Source: a virus (lineage: Duplodnaviria; Heunggongvirae; Uroviricota; Caudoviricetes). Taken from it: DNA of 64,000 nt. The position numbers were made by a program, and so were the translations under genes. Positions 1 to 45,855 of this stretch are shown in pieces. Within the stretch, counting starts at the first letter, position 1; every line of letters begins with the position of its first letter. The stretch lies in the IMG/VR virus record IMGVR_UViG_2541047857_000009. One strand, 5' to 3'. Below the pieces are notes generated by a model, which ran no database searches, had not been told where the DNA came from, and saw only the letters and a program-made list of their open reading frames with translations.

Positions 1-216
1 TTATTGGTTATCCGCTTTAGAAGCATTGACCTGATCTTCCCATGATGCGATCTCAGATTCCCGCCAGCGCTTAGGGTTGCCGGGAATCGTTGGTTTAGGG
101 AAGGGGCAGGTGAAGCTCGAAGGCATGCGCGCCGGTGTACTCCAAAAGTACAGCGTACTCCGGGAAATTTTGTATCGAGCCAGGATGTCACTGGTAAACA
201 AGATGCCGTCATTCAT
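1..216 (-). CDS. AlpA/excisionase-like small DNA-binding protein
   Basis: 71-aa ORF; FPKP...NPKRWRESEIASW resembles AlpA/Xis family. Confidence 0.5.
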   Translation of the reverse strand: MNDGILFTSDILARYKISRSTLYFWSTPARMPSSFTCPFPKPTIPGNPKRWRESEIASWEDQVNASKADNQ

Positions 217-325
217 TATTCTTTACTCCAGGCAAAAAAATGCCCTCGCAATGGAGGGCAAATGGGGGATAACGTGGCAGTGCATTCGCACCCAATAGCC
301 AGCTCATAACTGGCTATCAGTTACG

Positions 326-550
326 TCATGATGTTGGTGGTTTCGGTAGAGGTATCCAGTGCGTTACATTAATCGGATACCATTCGATGCCGTAGTTTTG
401 CTCATACACCTGAGCGTACCAGCCGTCGCCTTTGGGATGGCATTCGCAGTACTGACCAATATGCAATTCAACGCCAAATTCTGGGCGTGGCCAGATATAG
501 ACAAAGTCATCGTCCTCCGGTAATCGCTCACTACAAGGCACCCATTCCAT
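326..550 (-). CDS. DUF551-like phage protein
   Basis: 74-aa ORF, W..P.SERLPEDDD N-terminus typical of DUF551 prophage proteins. Confidence 0.45.
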   Translation of the reverse strand: MEWVPCSERLPEDDDFVYIWPRPEFGVELHIGQYCECHPKGDGWYAQVYEQNYGIEWYPINVTHWIPLPKPPTS

Positions 551-559
551 AATATCTCC

Positions 560-799
560 TCATGCCGCCCGCATAGCGCGGAGGCGTTTTAAGTGTTCTG
601 CTGTTTCGATTTCTTCGGCGATCCGCTCAGCCTGTGCTTTGGTAAGCGGCTCGAATTCATGCTGAAAGCGGCCCATGCTGGCGATACAGGTGCGACCGTT
701 TCTGATGTAGTGGATGACTTCGTTGGTAGCGCGGAGGATTTTGCAGGGCGCCCCGTGGGGATCTGCGTACCAGGTATTAGGCTGGATTATCCTGAACAT
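560..799 (-). CDS. hypothetical protein
   Basis: ORF; internal Met chosen to limit overlap with upstream gene. Confidence 0.35.
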   Translation of the reverse strand: MFRIIQPNTWYADPHGAPCKILRATNEVIHYIRNGRTCIASMGRFQHEFEPLTKAQAERIAEEIETAEHLKRLRAMRAA

Positions 800-1448
800 T
801 GGGCACCACCTTAAATTCGATAACCCAAACCCATGGGTTAGCTTCCCAGTTGTCGGCACCGTAGATGCTCATCCAAAGGTCACGGAAGTTAATGCGATAT
901 TCCCATCCGGGAAGAACCCCGCCGGAAGGCGGCGTAATGCCTTCTGACTTTGCATCGTCCTCACTCAGATCTCTAAGTCGCTCAACACGCACGCCGGTAA
1001 TCTCCAGAGTTAGACGACTGGCCCAGCGCGGCATGTGAATCGAAGGCGTCCAGCGTATTTCATCAGCCGGCGGCACATTCTCGTAATGAGTTGGAAGGTG
1101 CTCAGGATAATCCGCGCGATAAAGTTTCAGGTCCGGCGCGCCAGCACCAGCTTCAGCCCACGTTTCGCGCACCCAGATGCGATCGCCGACGGCACCGAAC
1201 GGGCAGGTGTAGCCTTCATTCTCATCTGCAACGCCAAACACATCTTTCTTTGCAGGCTGCAGGTATCCGTTTTTATCGACCACGCCAGGCGTGTACCAGT
1301 GTGCGTTTAAATCCAGATCGTAACCGTTATGCGTTGGGTGGAAGCCATCAGACGGCTGAATTTTCATGATGCGCCGCGTCTGCGTCTTCCGGCCGTCGAG
1401 GATGGCGCGCACCATCTCGCCGTTAAAAATCATTCCGCGCTCTTTCAC
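777..1448 (-). CDS. ASCH-like domain phage protein
   Basis: N-terminus MIFNGEMVRAILDGRKTQTRR matches the G-[RK]-KT-x-T-x-R hallmark of ASCH/PUA-like domains. Confidence 0.45.
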   Translation of the reverse strand: MKERGMIFNGEMVRAILDGRKTQTRRIMKIQPSDGFHPTHNGYDLDLNAHWYTPGVVDKNGYLQPAKKDVFGVADENEGYTCPFGAVGDRIWVRETWAEAGAGAPDLKLYRADYPEHLPTHYENVPPADEIRWTPSIHMPRWASRLTLEITGVRVERLRDLSEDDAKSEGITPPSGGVLPGWEYRINFRDLWMSIYGADNWEANPWVWVIEFKVVPNVQDNPA

Positions 1449-1672
1449 TGGATTCCCCTCTGCTTATTCTTCAGCTCGATGACGGATTGGCAATCCGCGC
1501 ACGTCTGGCAACCGGGAACGGCAGAGCGCCGCGGCTCGGGAATTGGTTCGTCGCATTCTTCACAACGCTCAGCTGATACGGCGTTACGGTTGAGGCGGTG
1601 AGCGGAAAGGGCAGCGTTACGCTGAAGCTCTTCAATCTCTGCTGCGGTGTCTATGATGTCGGCCATGGTCAA
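1445..1672 (-). CDS. TraR/DksA-family C4 zinc-finger protein
   Basis: 75 aa with CEECDEPIP...CQTCADCQ four-Cys motif. Confidence 0.6.
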   Translation of the reverse strand: MTMADIIDTAAEIEELQRNAALSAHRLNRNAVSAERCEECDEPIPEPRRSAVPGCQTCADCQSVIELKNKQRGIQ

Positions 1673-1757
1673 TGCTCCCGGAACTGTCGGTTAATTCGGT
1701 TGAAGGTGAACGCCAGCAATAAAAAAGGCCGACTAAGCGACCTAGTGATTAGTGCCT

Positions 1758-1949
1758 TCATGCTGCACCGCCTTCATTCTTCTCGGCTTCGACCGCCATC
1801 TGCTCAAGCCGTCGCGATAGCTCGGCGGCCAGTTTCTGGAATTCTTCTTCGGTCGCCACCGGGATCGGCACAAAGCGAATCCCTATGTGCGCCAGGTGGT
1901 TGGCGATTTCGAGGCTTTTCCTCAAATCAACTGGTGAGGCTCTGTTCAT
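1758..1949 (-). CDS. hypothetical phage protein
   Basis: 63-aa ORF in operon, ATGA-coupled to neighbour. Confidence 0.35.
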   Translation of the reverse strand: MNRASPVDLRKSLEIANHLAHIGIRFVPIPVATEEEFQKLAAELSRRLEQMAVEAEKNEGGAA

Positions 1950-2242
1950 GCGGCGCGATCCTCTTCCTGGAAGATAATTTCCATTTCAAGCTTCTCGGCC
2001 AACGCATTCTCCGCTCGGGCACCAGCGGAGTGCTCCCAGCCTTCAAGCATGTAGATAGCATCAGCACAGCGAAGCATAGACAGGCAGATGTCCATGTACT
2101 CGGCCTGGGTTAATCCATCTGGTAGACGGGCGGGATTCAGAACAATATGGCCTTTCGACCAGAGATGAAAATGCGCATGGTTAAAAGCGGCGCGGTTAAA
2201 ATTAGGTAGGCCGCTCATGGGCCCGGCAATATAAACTTTCAC
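1946..2242 (-). CDS. DUF4406 / nucleoside 2-deoxyribosyltransferase-like protein
   Basis: MKVYIAGPMSG N-terminus and LEGWEHSAGA motif typical of DUF4406. Confidence 0.55.
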   Translation of the reverse strand: MKVYIAGPMSGLPNFNRAAFNHAHFHLWSKGHIVLNPARLPDGLTQAEYMDICLSMLRCADAIYMLEGWEHSAGARAENALAEKLEMEIIFQEEDRAA

Positions 2243-2457
2243 GATTCCACTCCGAAGCGGCGATTAAGCCGCCCTGTGTATACGACGAACTCCAGGAGGC
2301 TAACTCCCATAGCTTCAATTTTCTTATGATGCTTGTTGATGATGGGAGGCACCGTTTCGTTCCAGTTAGGCTTTGGCTTCTTGCGCATGGCCTGCTGGAT
2401 TTCTTCGGTGCAGCGGCGGCAGGCGGAGCGGATGGCGTTGTCAGTTTCTGGCGTCAT
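2239..2457 (-). CDS. hypothetical protein (CxxC-containing)
   Basis: ORF with start overlapping methyltransferase stop (ATGA). Confidence 0.3.
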   Translation of the reverse strand: MTPETDNAIRSACRRCTEEIQQAMRKKPKPNWNETVPPIINKHHKKIEAMGVSLLEFVVYTGRLNRRFGVES

Positions 2458-3005
2458 GCAGCCTCCCGGCGGGCGAGAAGTTTCGCCCCGAAAGCCATCA
2501 GCTCGTCCCGGTCCACAGTTGCGAAGTGGCAATGCGTTCGGGGGTATGGCCGCCAAATAATCAGGATGGATCCTTTGCTATTTCCCGATACCGGCTTACC
2601 GGTGACCGGGTTAATAAATGCCAGCCGCCCGGCGGTGATGAAGCGAACATCGCTGGCGGTCTGGATTGCCTCCTTGAACCAGCCAACCGAAGTGTCAGCT
2701 GGGACAAGCATGACCGTGCCGATCTGATTGGCGCTCTCGGCGGCGGCCTTCTTAACAAACGGTGTAATGTCGCTGTATGGCGGGTTCAGCCAGACGTAGC
2801 CGGGAATGTTCAGGTAATCAGCCCAGGGCGTTTCCAGCGTGTTCTGCTCGGCGGTGATGAACTTGCGGCAAAGGGCGTTATGCGGGGCCGCGGCGGCATC
2901 CAGTTGGAAGCAGAACTCAGCATCAAGGGAGGCGAAGAGGGCGGGTGGAGTGCGCCATAGGTCACGCTGATCCGCTGGGGTGTTGCTGCCGGTGTAATCA
3001 GTCAT
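2454..3005 (-). CDS. phage DNA N6-adenine methyltransferase
   Basis: 183 aa with NPPY catalytic motif (LNPPYS) characteristic of N6-adenine MTases. Confidence 0.7.
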   Translation of the reverse strand: MTDYTGSNTPADQRDLWRTPPALFASLDAEFCFQLDAAAAPHNALCRKFITAEQNTLETPWADYLNIPGYVWLNPPYSDITPFVKKAAAESANQIGTVMLVPADTSVGWFKEAIQTASDVRFITAGRLAFINPVTGKPVSGNSKGSILIIWRPYPRTHCHFATVDRDELMAFGAKLLARREAA

Positions 3006-3154
3006 GCCGCCTCCTGCCTTTCCCGATATTCCTCAGCGAGCCGCTGCGCCTTTAATGGATTGCTTACCACTTCACCCCATGGCATTAGCCAGCCGTTACC
3101 AATGAAGGGAAGGCACACAGTGCCAACCCTGATGTCGTCGTGAGCGTGAGTCAT
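3002..3154 (-). CDS. small hypothetical protein (50 aa)
   Basis: ATGA-coupled at both ends within the operon; not in ORF track (<60 aa). Confidence 0.3.
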   Translation of the reverse strand: MTHAHDDIRVGTVCLPFIGNGWLMPWGEVVSNPLKAQRLAEEYRERQEAA

Positions 3155-3585
3155 AGGATGGACTCCATTTCGTCGATGTAGAGGCCCTGAGCAATCAGGC
3201 GACTACGGCGGGCGGCACGTTCAATGCACTCCTGCCGTCTACCTTCCTGCGATTGTTCAATGGCGCGCCGGGTGAACAGCCGCGATTTACCCTGTGGCGT
3301 AATGACCTTTGGCTTCGTGACCAGGTCGAAAGTCCGGTCGCAGATTCCGTCCTCGTTGATCCATTTCTCAGACTCAACTATCTGCGCTATCTGTCCGGTG
3401 CCGCGGGTGATGCCGTTGGCGACCCGGTTAAACTCAATGAGCGTTACGCCAAACTTCTCAGCGATTTCACTACCGGTTACCGGGCGGCCGCGCGTCTGAA
3501 TCATCCAGATAACGCGCTCACGGAGACCGGAGAATTGCCCGGTTCGCCCGGGCCGACGGTAGAAGGGTGTGCGTTTCATTTCCAC
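3151..3585 (-). CDS. hypothetical protein, possible winged-helix DNA-binding
   Basis: 144-aa ORF in early-left operon. Confidence 0.4.
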
Positions 3586-4256
3586 TGCTCCCCGAACGTG
3601 AAGCCGATCTCCGCCAGCGCCTCGTCCATCTTCTCGATGAACTCCGGCACCATTTCTTTGAAATCGGTCATGTACTGTGGATCCCGCTCAACGACGACGT
3701 GGTGAATACCTTCGCGCTTCATGCGCGGGTCGTAGTTGGCAAAGAACCAGGCGTCTTTTCCGGTAACCCACATGCTGTACTGCACCTGGGCCATGTACGC
3801 AGACTTGATGGCTTCGAAACCGCCAAGGCGGAACTTCATGAAGTCGCGAGAGGTGAAAGGGCATTTAAGCTCAAGGCCGAACCCGTTACTGCACAGGCCG
3901 TCAGGGGAGCACGCGGTGCGCATGCTCTCGTCACGGAACAGGATCGGCGACTCCGTGACTTTCACGTCGGTGGTGAACTCGAAGAGGGTACGAGCGTCTT
4001 CCTCGTACTGCTTACCCCAGGCCAGCGCCTTAGCGTTAACCTCTGGCGCTACGCCTGTGCATACCTCGGCGAGCAGCGTGTGGAAGTAGGACATTTTCAT
4101 ATCTGTCCACTTCTTCCCCGATCTTGGCTTGGATATGACGTTGTGTACTTCTGAGGCAGTAATGACACCGAGGCGCAGCCGGTGCCACGCCTCATCGCCC
4201 TGTTGGATAGTGGTTACGTCAATGCCGGTCCGAGCTAGGATAATTTTCGGTGTCAT
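3576..4256 (-). CDS. exo: lambda exonuclease (Red-alpha) homolog
   Basis: 226 aa, near-colinear with lambda Exo as I recall it (MTP.IIL.RTGIDV...[31 protein letters not shown]). Confidence 0.85.
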
Positions 4257-4459
4257 AGTTTTACCCTGTATACGTTCTGCTTATTTGAACGGGTGCCATC
4301 GTGAAACCATATTGCGCACCTGGTGACTTCTATCCATTTACGCCGCTCAAGCTCGGCGATGAACCATGAAACGCGAGACCTTGAAATGCCTAAAATCTTT
4401 GCCATGTCGCGAATGCTGTGCTTTCCGCTTCGCAACAGTGAAAGCAGGGAGGGTGTCAT
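4253..4459 (-). CDS. small HTH protein
   Basis: 68-aa ORF between bet-like and exo; [24 protein letters not shown]-like. Confidence 0.4.
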
Positions 4460-5316
4460 GCTGCCGCCTTAGCTTTTTTCTGAAGGAAGTTGAACCCTTT
4501 CTGTGCCTCTTCTTCAGTGAGGTCGGACGCCTCAAGAATTGGCCGTTTGAAGATGTCGCTGCACACTGGGAGGAAGTCTTCCTCCCAGTCTTTATTCAGC
4601 GATGTTAAGAGATCGGTGATCGCCTGAAGCGTTTCTTCGCTTGCTGCTGGTGGAAGTGCTTCTGTGGTGCTGCGCGGCGTGACGTCACGGATATCAACGT
4701 CCAGTGATTTGCCTTCCATTTCTTCGGCGGTAGGCTGCTGTCCAATCTCAGGCCATGCCTTACGCAACGCCTGAGCTTCCGCGCATTTCGCCAGCTGTCC
4801 GTATGGGCGCTTTTTCCACATCGCATTCGGCGCCGTTGTTTCGCGGCCGCCGGTGGCATAGTTTTCAATCCAGTATTCTTTGGCGCTGAACTCGACGATC
4901 TCGCCGCTGGGCATGCGCTTGAAAACGGTGTATTTGCACCACTGAGGGAAGGTCACCTCGACACCAGTAAGCGTCTGAGTTACATCGGGCCCGAACTCAG
5001 GCTCCCGTGCCCCGGCATAATCGCCAGAGCGGTCTGCCTGAATGCGGTAAAGCCCGATTCCTGGCATGACCACGTCGCGCCAGTCACCTTTACCTGTTTT
5101 CGAGTCTTTGACGTACATCGGAACGAGGTGGACAGGTTTGAGCAACGGATCCAGCTGGCGGGCGCGGCAGTAGTCAAGCGCCATCATTACCGATTCGTCT
5201 TTGGCGCCAGGGTAGATGCTGTTCTTCAGTGCACTCCAGGTGGAGACGTCGACGCCTATCTCCTGAAGCGACTTCGCTGTGATTGTTAATTCGTTTGCCA
5301 TCGTTAATCCCCTCAA
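4456..5316 (-). CDS. Red-beta/Bet-family single-strand annealing protein
   Basis: C-terminal 60 aa closely resemble lambda Bet C-terminus (ETLQAI..LL..L.K.W..D.LP.CS.IF.R); sits upstream of exo. Confidence 0.7.
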   Translation of the reverse strand: MRGLTMANELTITAKSLQEIGVDVSTWSALKNSIYPGAKDESVMMALDYCRARQLDPLLKPVHLVPMYVKDSKTGKGDWRDVVMPGIGLYRIQADRSGDYAGAREPEFGPDVTQTLTGVEVTFPQWCKYTVFKRMPSGEIVEFSAKEYWIENYATGGRETTAPNAMWKKRPYGQLAKCAEAQALRKAWPEIGQQPTAEEMEGKSLDVDIRDVTPRSTTEALPPAASEETLQAITDLLTSLNKDWEEDFLPVCSDIFKRPILEASDLTEEEAQKGFNFLQKKAKAAA

Positions 5317-5319
5317 AAA

Positions 5320-5604
5320 TTAAAACGGGCAGCCGGTACGGTGTTCCCAGTCGTATTCCGCCTGGGCGTAAGCAACTACCGAAATGAAATCGTTGTAGGC
5401 CTCGCCAGCTTTATCGCTGCGAAGCCCTTCGTATGGGCTGGAGTCTATCGGGATCGTGAAGTGGAAGAGGCCGGACGGCTCTTTAGGCATCATGTCGATG
5501 ATTTTCTGCGCCCGGTCGTCGATCCACTTCTCTTTCTCGTCGGTGATCTGCTGCTCAGCCCAGCGCCGATCTTCGATGCGGTCGTAAGTGAGGTATGCGT
5601 TCAT
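5320..5604 (-). CDS. hypothetical protein
   Basis: 94-aa ORF. Confidence 0.4.
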   Translation of the reverse strand: MNAYLTYDRIEDRRWAEQQITDEKEKWIDDRAQKIIDMMPKEPSGLFHFTIPIDSSPYEGLRSDKAGEAYNDFISVVAYAQAEYDWEHRTGCPF

Positions 5605-5611
5605 GGTTGCC

Positions 5612-6583
5612 TCAGTAATGAATTTTCGCGCAGGGGATCAGGTCATCTTTCAGAGCGGTAAGCACTTCGATAGCCTGCTCGCGGGTTAAGCTGGTTTGGC
5701 TGGTGAGCGCGTTAACGATGTTGGTGCCGACCGTCTTGCGGTGCTTAACGTCAGCTTCACGCTTTGCCTGCTCATCGGCGAGGCGCTTCTCTTCGGCCAG
5801 GCGGGCATCTTCGGCCTGTTTGGCCTTCAGGCGCTCGGCTTCAACCGCCGCGGCTTTTTCGCGTTCCGCCCGGGCTTCCGCTTCCTGCTTCTCGCGAGCT
5901 GCACGCTGTTCCGCTTCGACGCGCTGGCGCTCCGCCAGTTCAGCGCGGGCTTTCTCTTCGGCTTCACGGCGCGCTGCGGCTTCAATCTCCGCTTTGTGCT
6001 TCGCTTCGGCATCGCGGCGGGCTTGTTCTGCTGCTTCCTGTTTCAGCCGCTCATCACGTTCACGCTGAGCCTGTTCCGCCAGACGGCGCTGCTCTTCGCG
6101 GTCACGGTCAAAATCCTTGTTCATCAGTAGAGCCATTTCGTGGTCCGCTTCGAACTTGGCAGCCAGCTCCTGATCGAACCTGATGTTCATCTCCAGCGCT
6201 TCGGCGTGCATCGCGTTCATGGCTTCTTCAGCCTTAATGCGTTCCTGCTCGGCTTCCCATTCGGTGAGTGGGCGGCGGGTCGCATCGCGCAGCTCGTCGC
6301 AGGCATCAACGAATCGCTTAATTTCGGCCTCAGCCGGACGCACAGCCTCTTTCAGGCGCTTCAGGTACTCACGGCCCGGCTTTTCGATTGCCGTCTTGCT
6401 GCGGGACACCTGCGCTGCCAGAGAGGCAACACGGTCACGGCCTTTCTTCGTGGACAGGTCCGGCACTTCGTTTACAGCCTGGCGGATTTGCTCAAGGTAC
6501 GCGTCAAGGCCGCCCGCTACGTAAAGCACTGGGGCCTGTTCCGGCTTGATTTCGATGACAGTTAAGTCCGTTACTTCGCTCAT
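5612..6583 (-). CDS. hypothetical charged coiled-coil protein
   Basis: 323 aa; central about 150 aa of E/R/A/K/Q-rich repeats. Confidence 0.45.
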   Translation of the reverse strand: MSEVTDLTVIEIKPEQAPVLYVAGGLDAYLEQIRQAVNEVPDLSTKKGRDRVASLAAQVSRSKTAIEKPGREYLKRLKEAVRPAEAEIKRFVDACDELRDATRRPLTEWEAEQERIKAEEAMNAMHAEALEMNIRFDQELAAKFEADHEMALLMNKDFDRDREEQRRLAEQAQRERDERLKQEAAEQARRDAEAKHKAEIEAAARREAEEKARAELAERQRVEAEQRAAREKQEAEARAEREKAAAVEAERLKAKQAEDARLAEEKRLADEQAKREADVKHRKTVGTNIVNALTSQTSLTREQAIEVLTALKDDLIPCAKIHY

Positions 6584-6652
6584 GGTTTCTCCTGAAATTT
6601 GGATGTGCAGATCCCGCCCGCAGAAGCCAGGCCGATCGGTTTAATAGGATGG

Positions 6653-6862
6653 TTAGTGCTGGATAGGGTTGCCGTGACCGTCCAGAAGGACGTCAATCAC
6701 GCAGTCACTGAGGCGGATAATTTCTGCATCGGTGTGCAGGTACACCCATTTGCGCTCCTGAATGACTGCTGAGACGCGATAGGTTCGGCCTTCATGCATT
6801 GCCATCATTCCGGGCGTGACGCACTGGCGAATGAGCGGGGTGGTACCGTAGTGGTGCATCAT
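6653..6862 (-). CDS. hypothetical protein
   Basis: 69-aa ORF, ATGA-coupled. Confidence 0.35.
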   Translation of the reverse strand: MMHHYGTTPLIRQCVTPGMMAMHEGRTYRVSAVIQERKWVYLHTDAEIIRLSDCVIDVLLDGHGNPIQH

Positions 6863-7017
6863 ACCTTCACCTCAACCTGTTCCAGGAGGCCAGCCATATG
6901 CATCTGCCAGCGGTTAAGCGTCAGCTTTTCACGCGGTGCCGATACGGACGTCAGCTGCCACTCGTTATCGTTGAGCTTTTTGTCGGTGTACTGCTTGCCG
7001 TTGTGGGTGACTGTCAT
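6859..7017 (-). CDS. small hypothetical protein (52 aa)
   Basis: GGGAGG RBS, ATGA overlaps on both sides. Confidence 0.3.
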   Translation of the reverse strand: MTVTHNGKQYTDKKLNDNEWQLTSVSAPREKLTLNRWQMHMAGLLEQVEVKV

Positions 7018-7523
7018 GATGCCTCCCGAGCTTTGGCGTTTGCCGCATTGATGGCGTCAATGTTCATCAGGCAGTAGATAGCGCATTCAGCGTCGTAATC
7101 ACTCAACCCGCCGCTTGCCAGCTTATTAAGTGCGGTGCCAGTTAAACCGATCTTGAAGCAGATAGAGCCGTGTTTAGGGCCATATCCATAGCGATGGTCT
7201 TCACGCTGATCGCTCCATTGGGCGTAGTTTTTTGTGCCAAAATAACGCTCGCTCAGACGGTTGAACCCCGACGCAATGTCGTTAATCGCGTCTTCAACAC
7301 ACCCGCGCCGTTCCGTGCTTTGTTTCGGGTCTCCGAAGTTAATGATCGTCATGCCATGCCGAACCATCTCAACCGTTAGGCCTTTATTGGCATAGTTGAT
7401 ACCTTCAGCCACGGCAATCAACTCCTTGCCGATGCGTGAGGTGTCATCAACAAACTTCGCCTTCAACTGAGCCAGCTCGGCTTCAATTGCCATTTTCTTC
7501 TTGGTCAATTCGATAAGAGTCAT
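7014..7523 (-). CDS. hypothetical early protein
   Basis: 169-aa ORF, no family recognised. Confidence 0.45.
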   Translation of the reverse strand: MTLIELTKKKMAIEAELAQLKAKFVDDTSRIGKELIAVAEGINYANKGLTVEMVRHGMTIINFGDPKQSTERRGCVEDAINDIASGFNRLSERYFGTKNYAQWSDQREDHRYGYGPKHGSICFKIGLTGTALNKLASGGLSDYDAECAIYCLMNIDAINAANAKAREAS

Positions 7524-7656
7524 AATTGTCTCCGCGCTTAAGGCCGCGCCGCCGAACGGTTAATACAAGACTTCAACGCATTTATTCAGTGTTTCAATGG
7601 GCGGTGGATGGCCGCCGGTTGTCATAACTTGAGCCACTCGTAAATGACCCCAGGTA

Positions 7657-7682
7657 TGAAAAAAGCCGCTGGTTAGGCGGCT
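7657..7682 (-). terminator. rho-independent terminator downstream of first early-left gene (tL1-like)
   Basis: AGCCGC/GCGGCT stem with T-tract on minus strand. Confidence 0.5.
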
Positions 7683-7897
7683 CTGTTAATCCATTCTCGT
7701 GCGTTGCGTCGGCACATCCATGCCAGCTTTACCCAAAGGTCATGAAACCCATCACCACGCACTGATGCTCGACATTTTTTGCGGTACTGCCTGTAATCTT
7801 CACTGCACTCGGCAGCATATTTATCAGTTGTGCTTTGCATGCTCTTACCCTCTGTCGTTACCCGCTGATGCGGGAGAAATTCTTTATCTATCAGCTG

Positions 7898-8110
7898 CTA
7901 CAACTCATCACGAATCTGTGAGAGTGTGCTGATCGCCTGGTAATGACCGCGACGCTGCTCTTCTGTTTTGAACGCGCGCATATCGTCTTTTATCGATGCG
8001 ATTGCCTTATTCAGAACTTCCACTTGCGCTTCTTTAATCGCCTGTTTGCGTGGCTTCTGACGCTTCTTAGGAAGGTCTCTTAAACACGCCGGAATGTATG
8101 TCTGAGTCAT
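7898..8110 (-). CDS. small basic protein at the N-antiterminator position
   Basis: 70 aa, KKRQKPRK basic N-terminus; first gene leftward of OL; no nut sites found. Confidence 0.35.
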   Translation of the reverse strand: MTQTYIPACLRDLPKKRQKPRKQAIKEAQVEVLNKAIASIKDDMRAFKTEEQRRGHYQAISTLSQIRDEL

Positions 8111-8325
8111 AAAAAATCCTCTTGTGATTCAGCACAGCCCACTCAGCTTCGAATGGACTGGAATAAATCTTTTTTTCGCTTTGCCATAATTGCCGCTCTC
8201 CCTGAGCCCGCCTATGGTCCGACGCATGGTTTACTGTCGCGCCGTTCGACTGACCGAATCTCCACTTCGCCGCTGGCTAACTTCGCTCAGCTGTCGATGT
8301 TTCGTTTCGATGGGCTAACAATAGC

Positions 8326-8380
8326 TAAAGCGATTATTTCAGTCAATCGCCAAAACGATATTTATCATCGATAAAGTGAT
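8326..8380. promoter_or_regulatory. OL-like operator region
   Basis: GCGATT-N9-AATCGC and CGAT-N7-ATCG palindromes sharing the ATCGC half-site with OR. Confidence 0.4.
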
Positions 8381-8483
8381 AATTCATTGAATGTTAAAGC
8401 GATATTTTTTTTAAATGAAGTGGAAAAAAGTGATGTTGAAGGCGGTTTGATGGGAGCGAATTGGAGGTAGTAGATGGAGGTAT

Positions 8484-8506
8484 AAAAAAACCGGCTTTCG
8501 CCGGTT
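8484..8506 (-). terminator. rho-independent terminator ending the cI-lipoprotein operon
   Basis: CCGGC-tttc-GCCGG hairpin plus T7 on minus strand, 6 nt after lipoprotein stop. Confidence 0.65.
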
Positions 8507-8512
8507 GGTTAA

Positions 8513-8989
8513 TCAGTTGCAGTTAACTTTCCTGCCTACGAAGATCAAGTCTCCGTACTCGTCATTGGTATTCTTAAACCTAAGAACCTGTCCATTACGG
8601 ATAAAGGCCCAGTAGAGTTGCTTACCTGTGTATCCGCCATAAGAATTTTTTGCGTTCACGAAAACACACGTTGAGTAACCGTAAACAAAGTTCCTGTTCT
8701 CAACCATAACCTCTTTGCGGAGTGGAGAGAAGTCGCTGAATTTCGCGGAATCAGGATCCTTTAAGGCATCCTTGATTGTTTCCTGAACCAGCTCTTTATA
8801 GTTCTTTGGCTTTTCACCGACATCGGCTGTTTCAAGATTGATATTTCTAACCTTCTCGGCAAACTCGGCATCATGTTTTTTAGCCTCAGCCATCTTCTGA
8901 TCGTAATCAGAAGCAATACGGGCATAAGGTGGTTGCGCACACGCGCTGAGCAATGCAGAGGCGATAACTACAGCTGCTAATTTTTTCAT
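8513..8989 (-). CDS. lipoprotein (moron co-transcribed with cI)
   Basis: 158 aa; signal peptide with lipobox LLSAC; lower GC than flanks. Confidence 0.6.
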   Translation of the reverse strand: MKKLAAVVIASALLSACAQPPYARIASDYDQKMAEAKKHDAEFAEKVRNINLETADVGEKPKNYKELVQETIKDALKDPDSAKFSDFSPLRKEVMVENRNFVYGYSTCVFVNAKNSYGGYTGKQLYWAFIRNGQVLRFKNTNDEYGDLIFVGRKVNCN

Positions 8990-9024
8990 CTTCCCATCCC
9001 AGAGTAATTACTGTGTAAATTTTG

Positions 9025-9723
9025 TTATGCGAATCTTTTATAATCGACTGACTGTCTCAGCAGTACTTTAGCCATGACGTAGAACGCGTCCTCATCTTCA
9101 GGCTCGACGTACCATTTTTCGTAAATCGGGTTATCGGATATTACTGCCAGCCTGTCTCGCTGCATCTGCAGGCGCTTAACGTGCAGTGTCTTCCCAAATA
9201 CAAAGACGTATACACCGTCACCATCAAAGTGCGTAACACCGGTATCAACGAAGATCTGATCACCTGGTGAAATAGTGCCGTCCATGCTGTCACCATTAAC
9301 TGTGATCACTTTGACATGCGCAGCTGGACGATTGCCGAACAAGGCTCGCGCCTGCTCAGTCGTGTATTCAATGGCTCGGATAGTTTCAATGAAATCGCTG
9401 GTGACAATGCTGCCCGGCCCAGCGCTGGCTTTAACGTCGAGTACATCCACGCGGTAAATCCCATTCAGTGACGGCTTAACCTGGTATAGCGCAGACGGTT
9501 CTCTTGCGCTACTTGAAGCCATTTCCCCTTCACCAGTAGACAGCCACTCCGGCCGCACACCCAGAACAGAGGCAATCTCAACAGTTTTACGGGAGCCGTT
9601 CGCTTCCTTGAGTAGCTTATTGACGCTGGACTGAGCCATGCCGACATCTTTGGCTAACCGGCCCTGTGTATATCCAGCATATTTCATTGCCTGCGCCAGG
9701 CGCTCCGAGAATCCCATATTCAC
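9025..9723 (-). CDS. cI-like repressor (HTH + S24 LexA-like peptidase)
   Basis: N-terminal HTH; C-terminal VNGDSM serine and HVKRLQ lysine of Ser-Lys dyad. Confidence 0.8.
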   Translation of the reverse strand: MNMGFSERLAQAMKYAGYTQGRLAKDVGMAQSSVNKLLKEANGSRKTVEIASVLGVRPEWLSTGEGEMASSSAREPSALYQVKPSLNGIYRVDVLDVKASAGPGSIVTSDFIETIRAIEYTTEQARALFGNRPAAHVKVITVNGDSMDGTISPGDQIFVDTGVTHFDGDGVYVFVFGKTLHVKRLQMQRDRLAVISDNPIYEKWYVEPEDEDAFYVMAKVLLRQSVDYKRFA

Positions 9724-9748
9724 CTCTGTTAATGACTCCTTTAACTCT

Positions 9749-9790
9749 ATCGCTCAAGCGATTATTTAGCAAAAAATCGCCTATGCGATT
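9749..9790. promoter_or_regulatory. OR-like operators between cI and cro
   Basis: Perfect palindromes ATCGCTCAAGCGAT and AATCGC-CTAT-GCGATT. Confidence 0.5.
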
Positions 9791-9844
9791 GACATTCGCT
9801 AAAGTGATAACCATAATCGCTTTAAACTGATAGCTGAGGTGATT

Positions 9845-10096
9845 ATGAAGACCCCAACAGTAGAGAAGAACTCCGCAGTAGAGAAAGCGATTGCCATCGC
9901 TGGCAGCCAGAAAGAACTGGCAAAACGTTGCGGTAAAGCCCAGTCCACTATCTGCGACTGGCTTAACGGAAAGAAACGCATCTCCCCAGTTCACGTTCCT
10001 GAGCTGGTGAAAGCGGTTGGTGGTGAAATCCAGGCTCATGAATTCCGCCCGGACCTGCCTTCCATCTTTCCACACCCTGACAACCATGCCGCTTAA
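9845..10096 (+). CDS. Cro-like HTH regulator
   Basis: Divergent from cI; GSQKELAKRCGKAQSTICDWLNG HTH; GAGG RBS. Confidence 0.65.
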   Translation: MKTPTVEKNSAVEKAIAIAGSQKELAKRCGKAQSTICDWLNGKKRISPVHVPELVKAVGGEIQAHEFRPDLPSIFPHPDNHAA

Positions 10097-10125
10097 CGGC
10101 GGCCCTAACCACGAAAGGGAAAGCA

Positions 10126-10692
10126 ATGCATTCACTTGCGTATCAACAGAGTACCGGACTTGAACAACGTCCGTTGATTTCGATTTATCAAAGTGTTCCG
10201 CGTAATAACCGTAAGCTAACTCGAATACGGGAGGCAGTTAAGGCCTGGCAAAAAGCTACGCCGGGCCAGTCTCAGGTTCACATTTCTCAGCTGGTTGCGA
10301 AAGAGTGGCTGGCGCGCGGCGGGAAGGGGTTGTTACTGGCAGGTTCTGAACACAACACGAAGCAGAACTTCTTCCGGATGATTAACGATCCGGGCCCGAA
10401 GAACGACAAGGGGTTGATGCTACTGATCCCCGTCATTATCGACGTGATGGCGCGGGATAACGAGAAAGTGGCGAGAGAGTTCGGTCTGGTCGCAAAGACT
10501 GAGGCCGAACTGATAGCCGAGGCCATGAAAGAGTGCACTGAAGCGCATCAGGCGAAGTTACTTGGTCAGCCGATACAACGCCTTGAGAAAGAGGTGAGAG
10601 AAGCTGCTGAAGCACTTCTGCGCTTTCTGCCCACTGAATCAATCGCCGCGGTGGTGACAAGTCTGGCCGCTATGGCGCCGGGAGTTATGTGA
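10126..10692 (+). CDS. hypothetical regulator at the cII position
   Basis: 188-aa ORF immediately after cro. Confidence 0.35.
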   Translation: MHSLAYQQSTGLEQRPLISIYQSVPRNNRKLTRIREAVKAWQKATPGQSQVHISQLVAKEWLARGGKGLLLAGSEHNTKQNFFRMINDPGPKNDKGLMLLIPVIIDVMARDNEKVAREFGLVAKTEAELIAEAMKECTEAHQAKLLGQPIQRLEKEVREAAEALLRFLPTESIAAVVTSLAAMAPGVM

Positions 10693-42777: not shown

Positions 42778-43863
42778 CTAAATAAAACGCCTTGTAAATT
42801 TTGCTATTTTTTTCTCAATCAACGAGTGAACTAAGCACCCTGTAATAATGCTAAATAACACATAAAAAGCAAGGTACATAAATACACTGGTATGCAGATG
42901 TAGTTCCAGTCGCTCCCACCAGTGCGCAAGCAATGATGTAAATAAGCCATGTATGAGGTATATGCAGTACGAAGCATTACCTAAGTAAACTAATATATTC
43001 GGAGTCTTTACTTTACCCTCAAGGCTAATTGTTGCCCATACGATGTAAAAAGAAAACGCTCCCCATATAAGAGGTCTGTGCCATAAGTTCCCTACATACG
43101 TAGTTATTAAATATTTTTCAAGGATATAAAATAAAGGCAACGAACAAATCAATATAGCAGTAGCAAGTTTGGCGTTAAGAAATATTTTTGATATGTACAG
43201 TCTGTACATAAACATACCCAAAGCAAACTCAATCATTACTGGCTGAGAGATTACCTCAATTGGAGGGAAATACGCTTTAATAAAATTTGCGGCATGCTCG
43301 TTTTTAACTAAAATGTTACAAACGATAACTATTGTCACAAATGAAATTTCTATTTTCTCTATTTTTGAAACGCCAATTGCAATAAAAATAGCGAAGATAG
43401 CATAAAAGAAAAATTCAAACTGAAGAGTCCACCCAACACCTAGTATTGGTCCCTTATCCCAATGGGTGAACGTTATGCTCCTAAAAAAATACACTAAATC
43501 TATTTTATCAGATGGAAACCAAAAAAGTAACGGTCTTGCTGGGGAGGTGATTTGGTATGAAACCAAATAAGAGACATAAACAGCACATGCCGTAAGGATA
43601 ATATATAAAGGAAGTATCCTAACCAATCTTCTTAAAAAGAACTTTGCCGCTGAAATATTAAATGGCCCATCAGCTTTTTTACCTCCATAAGCAATAAAAG
43701 GCATTATAAACCCACTAATTATAAAAAATATATCAACACCTATACCACCAAGGCCTGACATCCTTATTCCATACATTACAATCTCAGAATGTGCAATGAC
43801 GACAATCAATGCGGCAAAGAAGCGCAATACCTGTATGTTATAAATTGTTTGTTTGTTATCCAT
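42778..43863 (-). CDS. acyltransferase family 3 (OafA/OatA-like) integral membrane protein
   Basis: 361 aa, about 10 TM helices, N-terminal LRFFAALIVVIAHS motif; AT-rich; convergent with tail fibre. Confidence 0.7.
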   Translation of the reverse strand: MDNKQTIYNIQVLRFFAALIVVIAHSEIVMYGIRMSGLGGIGVDIFFIISGFIMPFIAYGGKKADGPFNISAAKFFLRRLVRILPLYIILTACAVYVSYLVSYQITSPARPLLFWFPSDKIDLVYFFRSITFTHWDKGPILGVGWTLQFEFFFYAIFAIFIAIGVSKIEKIEISFVTIVIVCNILVKNEHAANFIKAYFPPIEVISQPVMIEFALGMFMYRLYISKIFLNAKLATAILICSLPLFYILEKYLITTYVGNLWHRPLIWGAFSFYIVWATISLEGKVKTPNILVYLGNASYCIYLIHGLFTSLLAHWWERLELHLHTSVFMYLAFYVLFSIITGCLVHSLIEKKIAKFTRRFI

Positions 43864-44197: not shown

Positions 44198-44215
44198 TTT
44201 ATGGGAGTGCAAATC

Positions 44216-44587
44216 ATGGAGTCCCAATTCCCCGCAGCAGATTATGCAGTAGAGCGTATCTCACTGGACGGCAGGATCATTACAAGCCCAGCGTCGACAT
44301 ATTTGATGCTGGCAGCAGAGACTATCTGGCGCGCAGGCATTATGAAAGATGCAATGCTTGTCGTGGACAGCGCTGTACATCCCATTGATGGTTCTATTAT
44401 CGTATGCCAGTTCAACGGTGAACTTCGTCTTAAGCGCTTGAGGTTAGCTCCTGCTCGATGCCTTGAAGATCTTAACTATCCAGACCGGCATCAGATGCTG
44501 ACGTCTGAAACTCTCATTATGGGAGTTGTGACATATATCATCAACGATGCCCGTAGTGGTGAGTTTGACGACAGCCCGGTGATCTGA
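44216..44587 (+). CDS. umuD: UmuD'-like protein lacking N-terminal cleavage segment and catalytic Ser
   Basis: Aligns with UmuD from about residue 26; GDSM replaced by ETIW; Lys retained (LKRLRL); GGGAG RBS. Confidence 0.65.
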
Positions 44588-45855
44588 TGTTTGCCCTGGT
44601 TGATGTAAATTCATTTTATGCGAGTTGTGAGACGGTATTCAGGCCTGACCTGAAAGGAAAACCGGTTGTTGTGCTGTCGAATAACGATGGCTGCGTGATT
44701 GCGCGCTCTGCTGAAGCGAAACTGCTCGGCGTCAAAATGGGTGACCCGTACTTCAAACAGAAAGACCTGTTCACGCGGTGCGGAGTTGTCTGCTTCAGCA
44801 GCAATTACGAGCTCTATGCGGACATGTCCAACCGGGTGATGACAACGCTCGAAGAGATGTCGCCGCGCTGCGAAATATACTCAATAGACGAGGCTTTCTG
44901 TGACCTTACCGGGGTTCGTAATTGCAGAGTTCTGGAAGACTTTGGACAGGAACTAAAGGACGCTGTATACCGTAACACGCGGCTTGCTGTCGGCGTTGGG
45001 ATAGGGCAGACAAAGACACTGGCGAAACTGGCAAATCATGCTGCAAAACGATGGCAGCACAAGACAGGTGGAGTTGTTGACCTGTCTAACGTCGAGCGTC
45101 AGCGCAAACTGATGGCAGCACTTCCTGTTGATGAGACATGGGGAGTGGGCCGGCGCATTACCAAAAAGCTCGAGGCTATGGGGATCAAGACGGTTCTCGA
45201 CCTGGCTGATACTGACATACGATTTATTCGTAAACATTTTAATGTGGTTTTGGAAAGGACTGTGCGTGAGCTGCGAGGAGAGCAGTGTCTAGAACTGGAA
45301 GAGTTTGCACCCGTAAAACAAGAGATTGTATGTAGCCGCTCATTCGGCGAACGAGTCACTGAATACGATGCAATGCGGCAGGCTATCTGTAGCTACGCGT
45401 CGCGAGCAGCGGAGAAGTTGCGTGGAGAGCATCAGTATTGCCGGTTTATCTCTGCGTTCGTCAAAACGTCACCATTCGCGCTTAATGAGCCATATTACGG
45501 TAACAGCGCATCGGTGAAGTTGCTGACACCGACGCAAGATAGCCGGGACATCATTGCGGCGGCCACTAAGTGCCTTGATGCTATATGGAAAGATGGTCAC
45601 CGATACCAGAAAGCGGGCGTGATGCTCGGAGACTTCTTCAGTCAGGGCGTCGCACAACTTAACCTGTTTGATGACAATGCACCTCGCGTCGGAAGTGAGA
45701 AGCTGATGGAAGTTCTGGATCAACTCAACACTAAAGGCGGGAGAGGTACGCTGTATTTTGCAGGGCAGGGCATCCAGCAGCAGTGGGCGATGAAACGAGA
45801 AATGCTTTCGCCGCGGTACACAACAAGATTTTCCGATCTGCTGCGCGTTAAGTAA
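44587..45855 (+). CDS. umuC: UmuC, Y-family translesion DNA polymerase subunit
   Basis: 422 aa; [15 protein letters not shown]...SIDEAF Y-family signature; ATGA-coupled to umuD'. Confidence 0.85.

Follow-up and report, generated by a model that had tools for sequence, protein, structure and literature searches.

Sequence analysis of a lambda exo-xis-like accessory region with an exchangeable methylase position in an Escherichia coli prophage

We analyzed a cluster of six genes at positions 1445 to 3154 of a 64,000-nucleotide (nt) stretch of DNA, here called the window, from the IMG/VR virus record IMGVR_UViG_2541047857_000009. Judged by its gene content and position, this cluster is the accessory region that lies between exo and xis in phage lambda, and we consider it quite likely that these are the exo-xis accessory genes of a lambda-like prophage and that a repressor-controlled early promoter drives their leftward transcription. 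The window was 100% identical to the chromosome of Escherichia coli strain 20A24, in which the prophage adjoins yciA. The open reading frame (ORF) listing and a reading of the sequence placed all six genes on the minus strand, in the transcriptional order DUF1317 > Dam > p72 > DUF4406 > DUF1382 > TraR, and the PGAP annotation of strain 20A24 calls exactly these six genes. A preliminary description of the same DNA had named a TraR/DksA-like gene, a DUF4406 gene, an N6-adenine methyltransferase gene, and three tiny ORFs. All of them were present in the interval, and the tiny ORFs turned out to be real family members, called by PGAP in the identical E. coli record. What that description missed was the identity of the cluster as the well-studied lambda exo-xis region.

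In lambda, this region consists of orf60a-orf63-orf61-orf73-ea22 and has been studied by the Wegrzyn and Donaldson laboratories; its early expression and its effects on the lysis-lysogeny decision are documented (PMC8614690, PMC3824215). It has also been studied in the Shiga toxin (Stx) phages Phi24B and 933W. The window proteins were compared with lambda proteins by BLASTP against a 14-protein database. The results showed that the TraR homolog was 62% identical to lambda Orf73 over 71 amino acids (aa), the DUF1382 protein was 61% identical to Orf63, the DUF1317 protein was 49% identical to Orf60a, and the exonuclease was 86% identical to lambda Exo. Residues 1 to 23 of p72 aligned with residues 33 to 55 of Orf61 at 43% identity, with an E value of 5e-5 in this 14-protein database, and a tblastn search with p72 gave no lambda or Stx phage match at an E value of ≤1e-3. 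No window protein matched lambda Ea22 by BLASTP. The Orf63 ortholog (63 aa; 1758..1949, minus strand) matched PF07131 at 2e-31, and the Orf60a ortholog (50 aa; 3002..3154, minus strand) matched PF07026 at 4e-16. The window cluster has the same place between exo and xis in the pL operon as the lambda region, but the gene orders differ, being 60a-[Dam]-61-like-[DUF4406]-63-73 in the window and 60a-63-61-73 in lambda. Three genes of the window, those for Dam, DUF4406, and a 142-aa protein, are extra over lambda, whereas Ea22 and Ea8.5 are lacking, and a phrog_874 ASCH-like protein, DUF4222, and DUF551 precede xis instead. The Orf60a-, Orf61-, and Orf63-like small proteins would be developmental modulators of the lambda kind.

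The surroundings of the cluster place it, on the evidence of sequence, in the early-left operon of a lambdoid prophage. We make this assignment because exo, bet, and gamL, a CI-like repressor gene, and divergent rightward genes lie to its right. The order beyond the cluster is a lambda-type exo gene (3576-4256), a small winged-helix gene, bet, and gamL, and farther right the CI-like repressor gene (9025-9723, minus strand; Peptidase_S24 and Phage_CI_repr, the CI helix-turn-helix domain) and the divergent genes. The excisionase gene (xis) lies at 1-216, and everything from xis to exo is on the minus strand, left of the repressor gene. A promoter scan gave a candidate early-left promoter at 8318..8346 (minus strand; TTGACT-17-TATTGT), downstream of the CI-like repressor gene, and we infer that this site is pL. 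Transcription would run leftward from a repressor-controlled early promoter after induction or infection; this timing is proposed because of the analogy with lambda (PMC9239242) and the silence of prophage methylases in lysogens (PMC5778455). Base composition showed no discontinuity that would set off Dam and DUF4406 as recent insertions, and an Rfam scan of positions 1 to 10500 gave zero matches. The GC content of the early-left region (window 1-9000) was 51 to 64%, and that of typical E. coli DNA is about 51%. Among sequenced phages, CobraSix and ENT1, both from Enterobacter, were the closest; identity was about 90%, and coverage was patchy. An early-left GC content above the E. coli value, together with nearest phages that infect Enterobacter, suggests recent transfer between genera.

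The genes of this operon are tightly packed. Computed junctions revealed eight consecutive 4-nt overlaps joining nine genes, bet > winged-helix > exo > 142-aa > DUF1317 > Dam > p72 > DUF4406 > DUF1382, with ATGA at seven junctions, including DUF1317/Dam, Dam/p72, and DUF4406/DUF1382, and GTGA at one, p72/DUF4406, where the start codon of DUF4406 is GTG. Along this chain, GGAG(G) was found 5 to 9 nt upstream of the starts, within the preceding gene. The run from bet through the Orf63-like gene is probably translationally coupled, because the 3' end of each gene encodes the next ribosome-binding site and a stop/start overlap (…GGAGG-CNGC-ATGA…). The preliminary description had ATGA overlaps joining successive genes throughout; this applied from DUF1317 to DUF1382, with one GTGA, and not to TraR, which is set off from DUF1382 by a 91-nt gap (1667-1757). 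The other members of the chain, all on the minus strand, are Bet/RecT at its head (4456-5301), a 68-aa MarR/HTH_24-like winged-helix protein whose gene is overlap-coupled on both sides (4253-4459), Exo, and the 142-aa protein (phrog_1680; 3151-3579). The winged-helix gene sits between bet and exo, which are adjacent in lambda.

We propose that the region is a string of small, independently exchangeable cassettes. The gene that follows the methylase gene encodes p72 (72 aa; 2239..2457, minus strand; phrog_303, 7e-27), and we surveyed 80 viral contigs carrying p72 at ≥94% identity, in 79 of which the abutting gene was found. An MT-A70 methylase gene abutted p72 in 28 of the 79 loci, a PF05869 Dam gene in 18, a fusion of a cytosine-5 (C5) methylase with Dam in 9, a C5 methylase gene in 7, an N6_N4 methylase gene in 4, and a fusion of a region like 3'-phosphoadenosine-5'-phosphosulfate (PAPS) reductase with Dam in 1. 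A few loci had an HNH_3/NUMOD4 homing-type endonuclease gene, and the remaining ones had fragments. A methylase of one of at least five families was thus located upstream of p72 in about 85% of the loci, and in close relatives the position is filled by MT-A70, Dam, C5, N6_N4, or fused methylases. Nearly all of these unrelated genes have the ending …E-A-A-stop, for which the DNA in each case reads GGAGGCCGC-ATGA and comprises the p72 ribosome-binding site and the overlapped p72 start; the shared 3' ending was GGAGGCCGCATGA in nearly all of the 79 loci. The DUF1317 gene is the usual left flank of this methylase slot, and p72 is its conserved right flank. The order DUF1317-methylase-p72 was also found in Klebsiella phage Chronis, and in another element (locus L168) a minimal trio, DUF1317-Dam-p72, stands directly before int with the rest of the region absent. 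The position after p72 held about 13 unrelated cargos, many of which also end in -(G/R)-A-A-stop/ATGA. The slot fits an anti-restriction role because the position is limited to methylases while the family turns over, a pattern in keeping with selection by changing host restriction systems, and such turnover at one position is what would be expected of an anti-restriction locus. A literature search on a methylase slot next to DUF1317 found nothing relevant.

Some slot genes were composite or broken. In three loci (L118 3513-4004, L147 3513-4004, and L087 3486-4004), the HNH_3/NUMOD4 ORFs open with the N terminus of Dam (MTDYTGSNTPADQR) and close with its C-terminal residues (…KLLARREAA). The body of dam has been replaced in frame by a homing-type endonuclease, and the first 14 and last 8 residues are kept. 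Only C-terminal Dam fragments were present in loci L134 and L159. Fusion methylases occurred at L132 2037-4004, L126 1812-3998, L161 2397-3770, and L154 2712-4004 and in CobraSix gp41 (L001 5653-7566); the types seen were C5 (PF00145) with PF05869 Dam, C5 with a D12-class Dam, a PAPS-reductase-like N-terminal region with Dam, and a 240-aa domain with Dam.

In the searches made, p72 was confined to Enterobacteriaceae, with 143 clusters and no Pfam family. Its model is a three-helix bundle with a predicted local distance difference test score (pLDDT) of 88, and a comparison of this model with PDB structures gave no significant match. For Orf61 of Stx phages, a homeodomain-like character has been proposed. 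Distant genes similar to p72 lie directly upstream of a methylase gene, in reverse order, in Serratia phage ZDD2 and Erwinia phage 49; the p72-like genes of T1-like phages are not accompanied by a methylase gene. On the simpler reading, p72 would be a conserved flank with a start region that serves as a recombination and translation adaptor; a functional link between p72 and the methylases is possible but unlikely. Many database copies of p72 shift frame after about residue 38 (…VPP) into …LKLWELASWSS… (P0364, P0372, P0376, P0379, P0383, and P0384 in alignment A3; the alternative frame corresponds to window 2202-2318). This frame switch may stem from errors in sequencing or from frameshifts that arose repeatedly, or possibly from programmed slippage on the run of CCC.

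The methylase of the window itself is a phage-type N6-adenine DNA methyltransferase (Dam) of 183 aa (2454..3005, minus strand; PF05869, TIGR01712, phrog_111, and PADLOC oMTase). It matched PF05869 at 1e-57 (194.8 bits; cutoff, 28.1), covering positions 1 to 168 of 169, and the TIGR01712 equivalog at 167.8 bits (cutoff, 97.05), and its catalytic motif reads W-L-N74-P-P-Y77-S, with NPPY at residues 74 to 77. Its best PADLOC model was orphan methyltransferase (oMTase; 5e-31), and none of the 15 neighboring products matched a restriction-system nuclease in Pfam or PADLOC; Pfam, PHROG, NCBIfam, and PADLOC scans of all neighbors from xis to the gene beyond gamL likewise gave no restriction enzyme. 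These results bear out the earlier view of the enzyme as an orphan. T1 Dam, M.EcoVT2Dam, and phi80 damL, which belong to PF05869/TIGR01712, resemble it in having a full-length family match and NPPY and in being phage borne and nuclease-less. Its identity was 48.6% to Stx-phage homologs and 41 to 43% to the Dam proteins of T1-like phages. M.EcoVT2Dam, from the Stx2 prophage VT2-Sa, was reported to methylate GATC (PMC6602927), and the target of the window enzyme would probably be GATC-like. The Stx-phage copies adjoin ninE, whereas the window gene lies in the exo-xis region, the place at which phi80 has a frameshifted "damL" pseudogene. M.EcoGI and M.EcoGII of E. coli O104:H4 prophages are likewise orphan adenine methylases, but they are of the beta-class, N6_N4 type and non-specific, and there is no sign that the window Dam is non-specific. 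Prophage methylases of that type are thought to be silent in lysogens and to be turned on only upon prophage induction (PMC5778455). We propose that Dam would be made early in lytic growth and would pre-methylate replicating phage DNA, so that progeny could escape restriction in the next host. A comparison of the methylomes of a lysogen and a cured strain, as suggested previously, would be an unfair test of Dam, because the gene lies in a repressor-controlled pL operon and comparable methylases are silent in lysogens.

The DUF4406 protein (98 aa, GTG start; 1946..2242, minus strand; PF14359 and phrog_355) belongs to a large family. It matched PF14359 at 2e-33 (115 bits; cutoff, 22) over positions 1 to 91 of 91, and the family comprised 11,357 clusters at 50% identity (E value, ≤1e-3) and occurred in 524 records of Vibrio, actinobacterial, Pseudomonas, and enterobacterial phages. 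A literature search gave three passing mentions, and the family is essentially unstudied. An AlphaFold (AF2) model had a pLDDT of 91.9 and a predicted template modeling score (pTM) of 0.85. Nearly all of the top 50 PDB matches of this model in Foldseek were nucleoside 2-deoxyribosyltransferases (NDT), DNPH1, Rcl, and MilB; the top ones (2a0k, 6qai, 8qhr, 4fyi, 4jem, and 1t1j) had probabilities of about 1 and TMq values of 0.67 to 0.79. Its structural relatives are therefore NDT, DNPH1/Rcl, the MilB/BcmB cytidine monophosphate glycosidases, and 1t1j. Searches against PDB sequences, both with the single sequence and with a profile, gave spurious matches only. Among 40 divergent relatives, S72, G74, A75, and E78 were invariant, forming an S-x-G-A-x-x-E loop at the junction of strand 62-65 and helix 73-84 of the model. 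The spacing of S72-x-G74-A75-x-x-E78 is the same as that of S98…E104 in DNPH1, for which the NDT equivalent is D92…E98; in this superfamily, the catalytic Glu nucleophile is on a (D/S)-x-G-x-x-x-E loop that follows the third strand. The DNPH1 and NDT sequences used for this comparison agreed with the PDB chains throughout the aligned parts, apart from one residue in 8qhr_A. In NDT and DNPH1, the active site is completed by a C-terminal strand/helix, which the DUF4406 protein, at only about 95 aa and four strands, lacks. It is thus strongly conserved across these relatives, with a predicted NDT/DNPH1-like fold, as the description as deoxyribosyltransferase-like had anticipated. The Ser in place of Asp in the loop would favor a 5'-phosphorylated substrate. 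The protein is most likely a minimal DNPH1/NDT-like enzyme with a conserved, putatively catalytic Ser…Glu loop, predicted to cleave the N-glycosidic bond of a (modified) nucleoside monophosphate and to have a nucleotide-pool function. A Pfam scan of 40 longer DUF4406-containing proteins revealed no recognizable partner domains, and many of these may be over-extended gene calls.

The adjacency of DUF4406 and the methylase had been taken as a hint of nucleotide or DNA modification chemistry. In the closest relatives, however, the two genes occupy independently assorting cassette positions. DUF4406 followed p72 in 20 of the 79 loci, namely, 5 of the 18 Dam loci and 15 of the roughly 60 loci with other cargos. 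Because DUF4406 assorts independently of Dam, their adjacency in the window is not evidence of joint chemistry. Enterobacterial relatives of DUF4406 at 64 to 73% identity were located in the replication/nin region. To survey diverse phages, we used enterobacterial, Vibrio, and Pseudomonas genes as seeds and obtained 237 loci in 44 clusters. The gene immediately upstream of DUF4406 was a methylase gene in 19% of these loci, or 13.8% after cluster weighting, compared with 0 to 10% at other positions, and methylases were the commonest neighbor class (9 of 90 neighbor clusters). The gene order was Dam > DUF4406 > nucleoside triphosphate (NTP) pyrophosphohydrolase in Vibrio phage 1.087.A and N6_N4 > DUF4406 > ASCH-like protein in Pseudomonas phage LESphi3, and neighbors in other phages included NTP pyrophosphohydrolase and dUTPase. 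In some records, MazG-like is the label of the DUF4406 gene itself. The association between methylases and DUF4406 was modest and non-obligatory and could not be separated from general accessory-gene clustering.

The last gene of the cluster encodes a TraR/DksA-family C4 zinc-finger protein of 73 aa, the lambda Orf73 ortholog (1445..1666, minus strand; PF01258, TIGR02419, and phrog_54). It scored 5e-10 and 39.5 bits (cutoff, 24.9) with PF01258 and 65.7 bits (cutoff, 59.7) with TIGR02419, and its ATG start at 1666 has GGAG 8 nt upstream. The translation contains D3-I-I-D6-T-A8, C35xxC38-17-C56xxC59, and R46R47. The motifs DxxDxA, CxxC-17-CxxC (the zinc site), and RR (for the rim helices and beta'Si3) are the hallmarks for binding of Orf73/TraR to RNA polymerase (PMC9239242, PMC8614690). 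Lambda Orf73 binds RNA polymerase, inhibits rRNA promoters without ppGpp as well as ribosomal-protein promoters, and raises phage yield about 4-fold (Gopalkrishnan et al., PMC9239242). F TraR shares with the window protein the length of 73 aa and all three motifs, RR corresponding to TraR R48/R49. The window homolog has five cysteines (C53 is extra), compared with six in lambda Orf73 and four in F TraR, and the ExxRK/ExxRL motif is ExxRS in it. The possibility raised previously, that the protein might reprogram host RNA polymerase, is well in line with these data, since all hallmarks are kept and the activity is already established for its ortholog lambda Orf73. We assign this role because of the 62% identity to Orf73 and the intact motifs: the homolog would enter the secondary channel of host RNA polymerase and turn off rRNA and ribosomal-protein promoters, and phage yield would rise.

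The non-coding spacer ahead of the TraR gene (1667..1757, minus strand) contains a terminator-like hairpin, a T-run, and a leader with the TraR ribosome-binding site. A terminator scan located the hairpin at 1726-1743 and the T-run at 1717-1725. The spacer was strongly kept at the nucleotide level in relatives, in 27 distinct versions. Those of about 110 nt that were examined carry one of two alternative GC stems, a GGTCGC/GCGGCC type and a GGGAGC/GCTCCC type, each followed by T5-6. Because one stem type is displaced by a single base relative to the other, one consensus structure for the alignment would mislead. All hairpin variants fold, with free energies of -6.9 to -12.9 kcal/mol; the whole spacer folded no better than shuffled sequences (z = +0.8), and the short hairpin alone stands out. 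The same element (hairpin, T-run, and leader) is carried by lambda directly upstream of orf73 (locus L003 3115-3215). This element probably acts within the pL operon as an intrinsic terminator, which would part the coupled run from the Orf73/TraR homolog, so that TraR and the genes beyond would need read-through (antitermination). The conserved leader is about 50 nt long, and in some relatives extra genes are inserted after it. A 30-aa mechanical ORF at 1669-1761 was rejected as a gene; it had no family match, is not in PGAP, and has lost its ATG in one relative. A second terminator-like hairpin, TGCCCTC…GAGGGCA followed by T7, lies on the minus strand at window 241-260, between the DUF551 and excisionase genes.

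Several points weigh against parts of this reading. The promoter was assigned on a match to 9/12 consensus positions, and the hairpin of the window is the weakest of the variants, at -6.9 kcal/mol. The target of Dam cannot be read from the sequence at 41 to 49% identity to characterized GATC enzymes, and a GATC methylase would be redundant in a Dam+ host. The mapping of the DUF4406 catalytic residues rests on the fold match and motif spacing rather than on a residue-level superposition, and hhalign of the DUF4406 alignment with human DNPH1 and Lactobacillus leichmannii NDT gave no meaningful alignment. Finally, the recurrence of methylase-DUF4406 and methylase-p72 adjacency in distant phages hints at functional links, to which a view of the region as wholly independent cassettes does too little justice.

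Such links would be expected if the Orf60a-like gene, methylase, p72, and DUF4406 formed one DNA-modification/anti-restriction module, in which p72 would be a family-independent methylase accessory (a regulator or a shield against modification-dependent restriction) and DUF4406 would dispose of a methylation-linked by-product or modified nucleotide. This is unlikely. The abutment of p72 with methylases of five or more unrelated families, the reverse order in ZDD2 and phage 49, and the persistence of the DUF1317-Dam-p72 trio without the rest of the region all speak for it, as do the peak of methylases at position -1 of DUF4406 and the gene orders in 1.087.A and LESphi3. But the 79 p72 loci are close relatives, in which shared synteny and the recombination junction account for much, and the p72-like genes of T1-like phages have no methylase beside them. 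Moreover, 75% of the slot methylases are in loci where p72 is not followed by DUF4406, the frequency of DUF4406 is no higher with Dam than with the other types, an adjacent methylase is lacking for more than 80% of DUF4406 genes, and p72 has no recognizable fold relative. A bolder version is, as a whole, quite unlikely: the Orf60a-like/methylase/p72 trio, often with DUF4406, would be a plug-and-play anti-restriction module of temperate enterobacterial phages, in which any methylase fits between two conserved adaptor junctions (…GGAGGCCGC-ATGA…), p72 is a helper that limits methylase toxicity or blocks modification-dependent (type IV) restriction, and the DUF4406 glycosidase clears methylated nucleotides or S-adenosylhomocysteine from the methylation burst.

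Another reading is that the methylase acts epigenetically in the lysogen, altering host gene expression instead of shielding phage DNA; the preliminary description had proposed an anti-restriction or epigenetic function, and orphan Dam-type enzymes can regulate genes (discussed in PMC6602927). We hold this to be very unlikely here: the gene lies about 5 kb inside a repressor-controlled leftward operon, is overlap-coupled to recombination genes, and has no promoter-like site of its own in the promoter scan. Lysogens do not express analogous prophage methylases (PMC5778455), and the turnover of methylase families at a single site agrees better with an arms race than with a constant regulatory role. 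It is highly improbable that the methylase is half of a restriction-modification pair with an unannotated neighbor, the 142-aa or the 218-aa protein, as the nuclease. Several neighbors are of no known function, and an HNH endonuclease is sometimes beside or inside the methylase gene in relatives; nevertheless, the neighbors match no restriction-enzyme or PADLOC model, and many loci that carry the 142-aa and 218-aa genes have a methylase of another type or none. The HNH genes of relatives were rejected as restriction partners, being of the NUMOD4/HNH_3/AP2 homing type and replacing the dam body in frame, as is typical of selfish insertion. Decay of the cluster into non-functional cargo of a cryptic prophage is equally improbable. 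The phi80 dam at this position and many database copies of p72 are frameshifted, but the six ORFs of the cluster are intact, match their family models over the full length, and retain the conserved residues. Identical copies exist in IMG/VR viral contigs, free-living phages such as CobraSix and ENT1 are the closest relatives with a sequence, and some ORFs of the window are, judged by size, what would be expected of head and tail genes.

An Orf73/TraR homolog and an orphan phage Dam are known kinds of genes, and the cluster mainly aids annotation. The mildly new point is the place of the methylase in a slot with swappable occupants, which in close relatives illustrates cleanly how cassettes of one function are exchanged in nature via an identical ribosome-site/ATGA adaptor. 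The slot could help to predict anti-restriction cargo and to engineer phage methylation. DUF4406, as a large unstudied family with a DNPH1-like loop and a modest tie to methylases and nucleotide house-cleaning enzymes, is tractable for biochemistry.

Other genes of the window were also noted. Downstream of TraR lies the gene of the 218-aa phrog_874 protein (8e-82; 777..1433, minus strand), which is weakly ASCH-like. It was 40% identical (E value, 1e-42) to a LESphi3 protein annotated as an ASCH-domain N4-acetylcytidine amidohydrolase (L175 2779-3489), which sits right after DUF4406 in that phage; the Pfam ASCH match was below threshold in both proteins (E value for the window protein, 0.04). 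A 323-aa protein encoded upstream of gamL (window 5612-6583, minus strand) has a long, highly charged middle region rich in Glu, Arg, and Ala and matched nothing in Pfam, NCBIfam, or PADLOC. Beyond long ORFs assumed to be tail genes lie an Acyl_transf_3 gene (42778-43863, minus strand) and a UmuD-like/UmuC-like pair at 44201-44587 (Peptidase_S24) and 44587-45855 (IMS, IMS_C, and DUF4113), and a similar pair adjoins the integrase gene of CobraSix.

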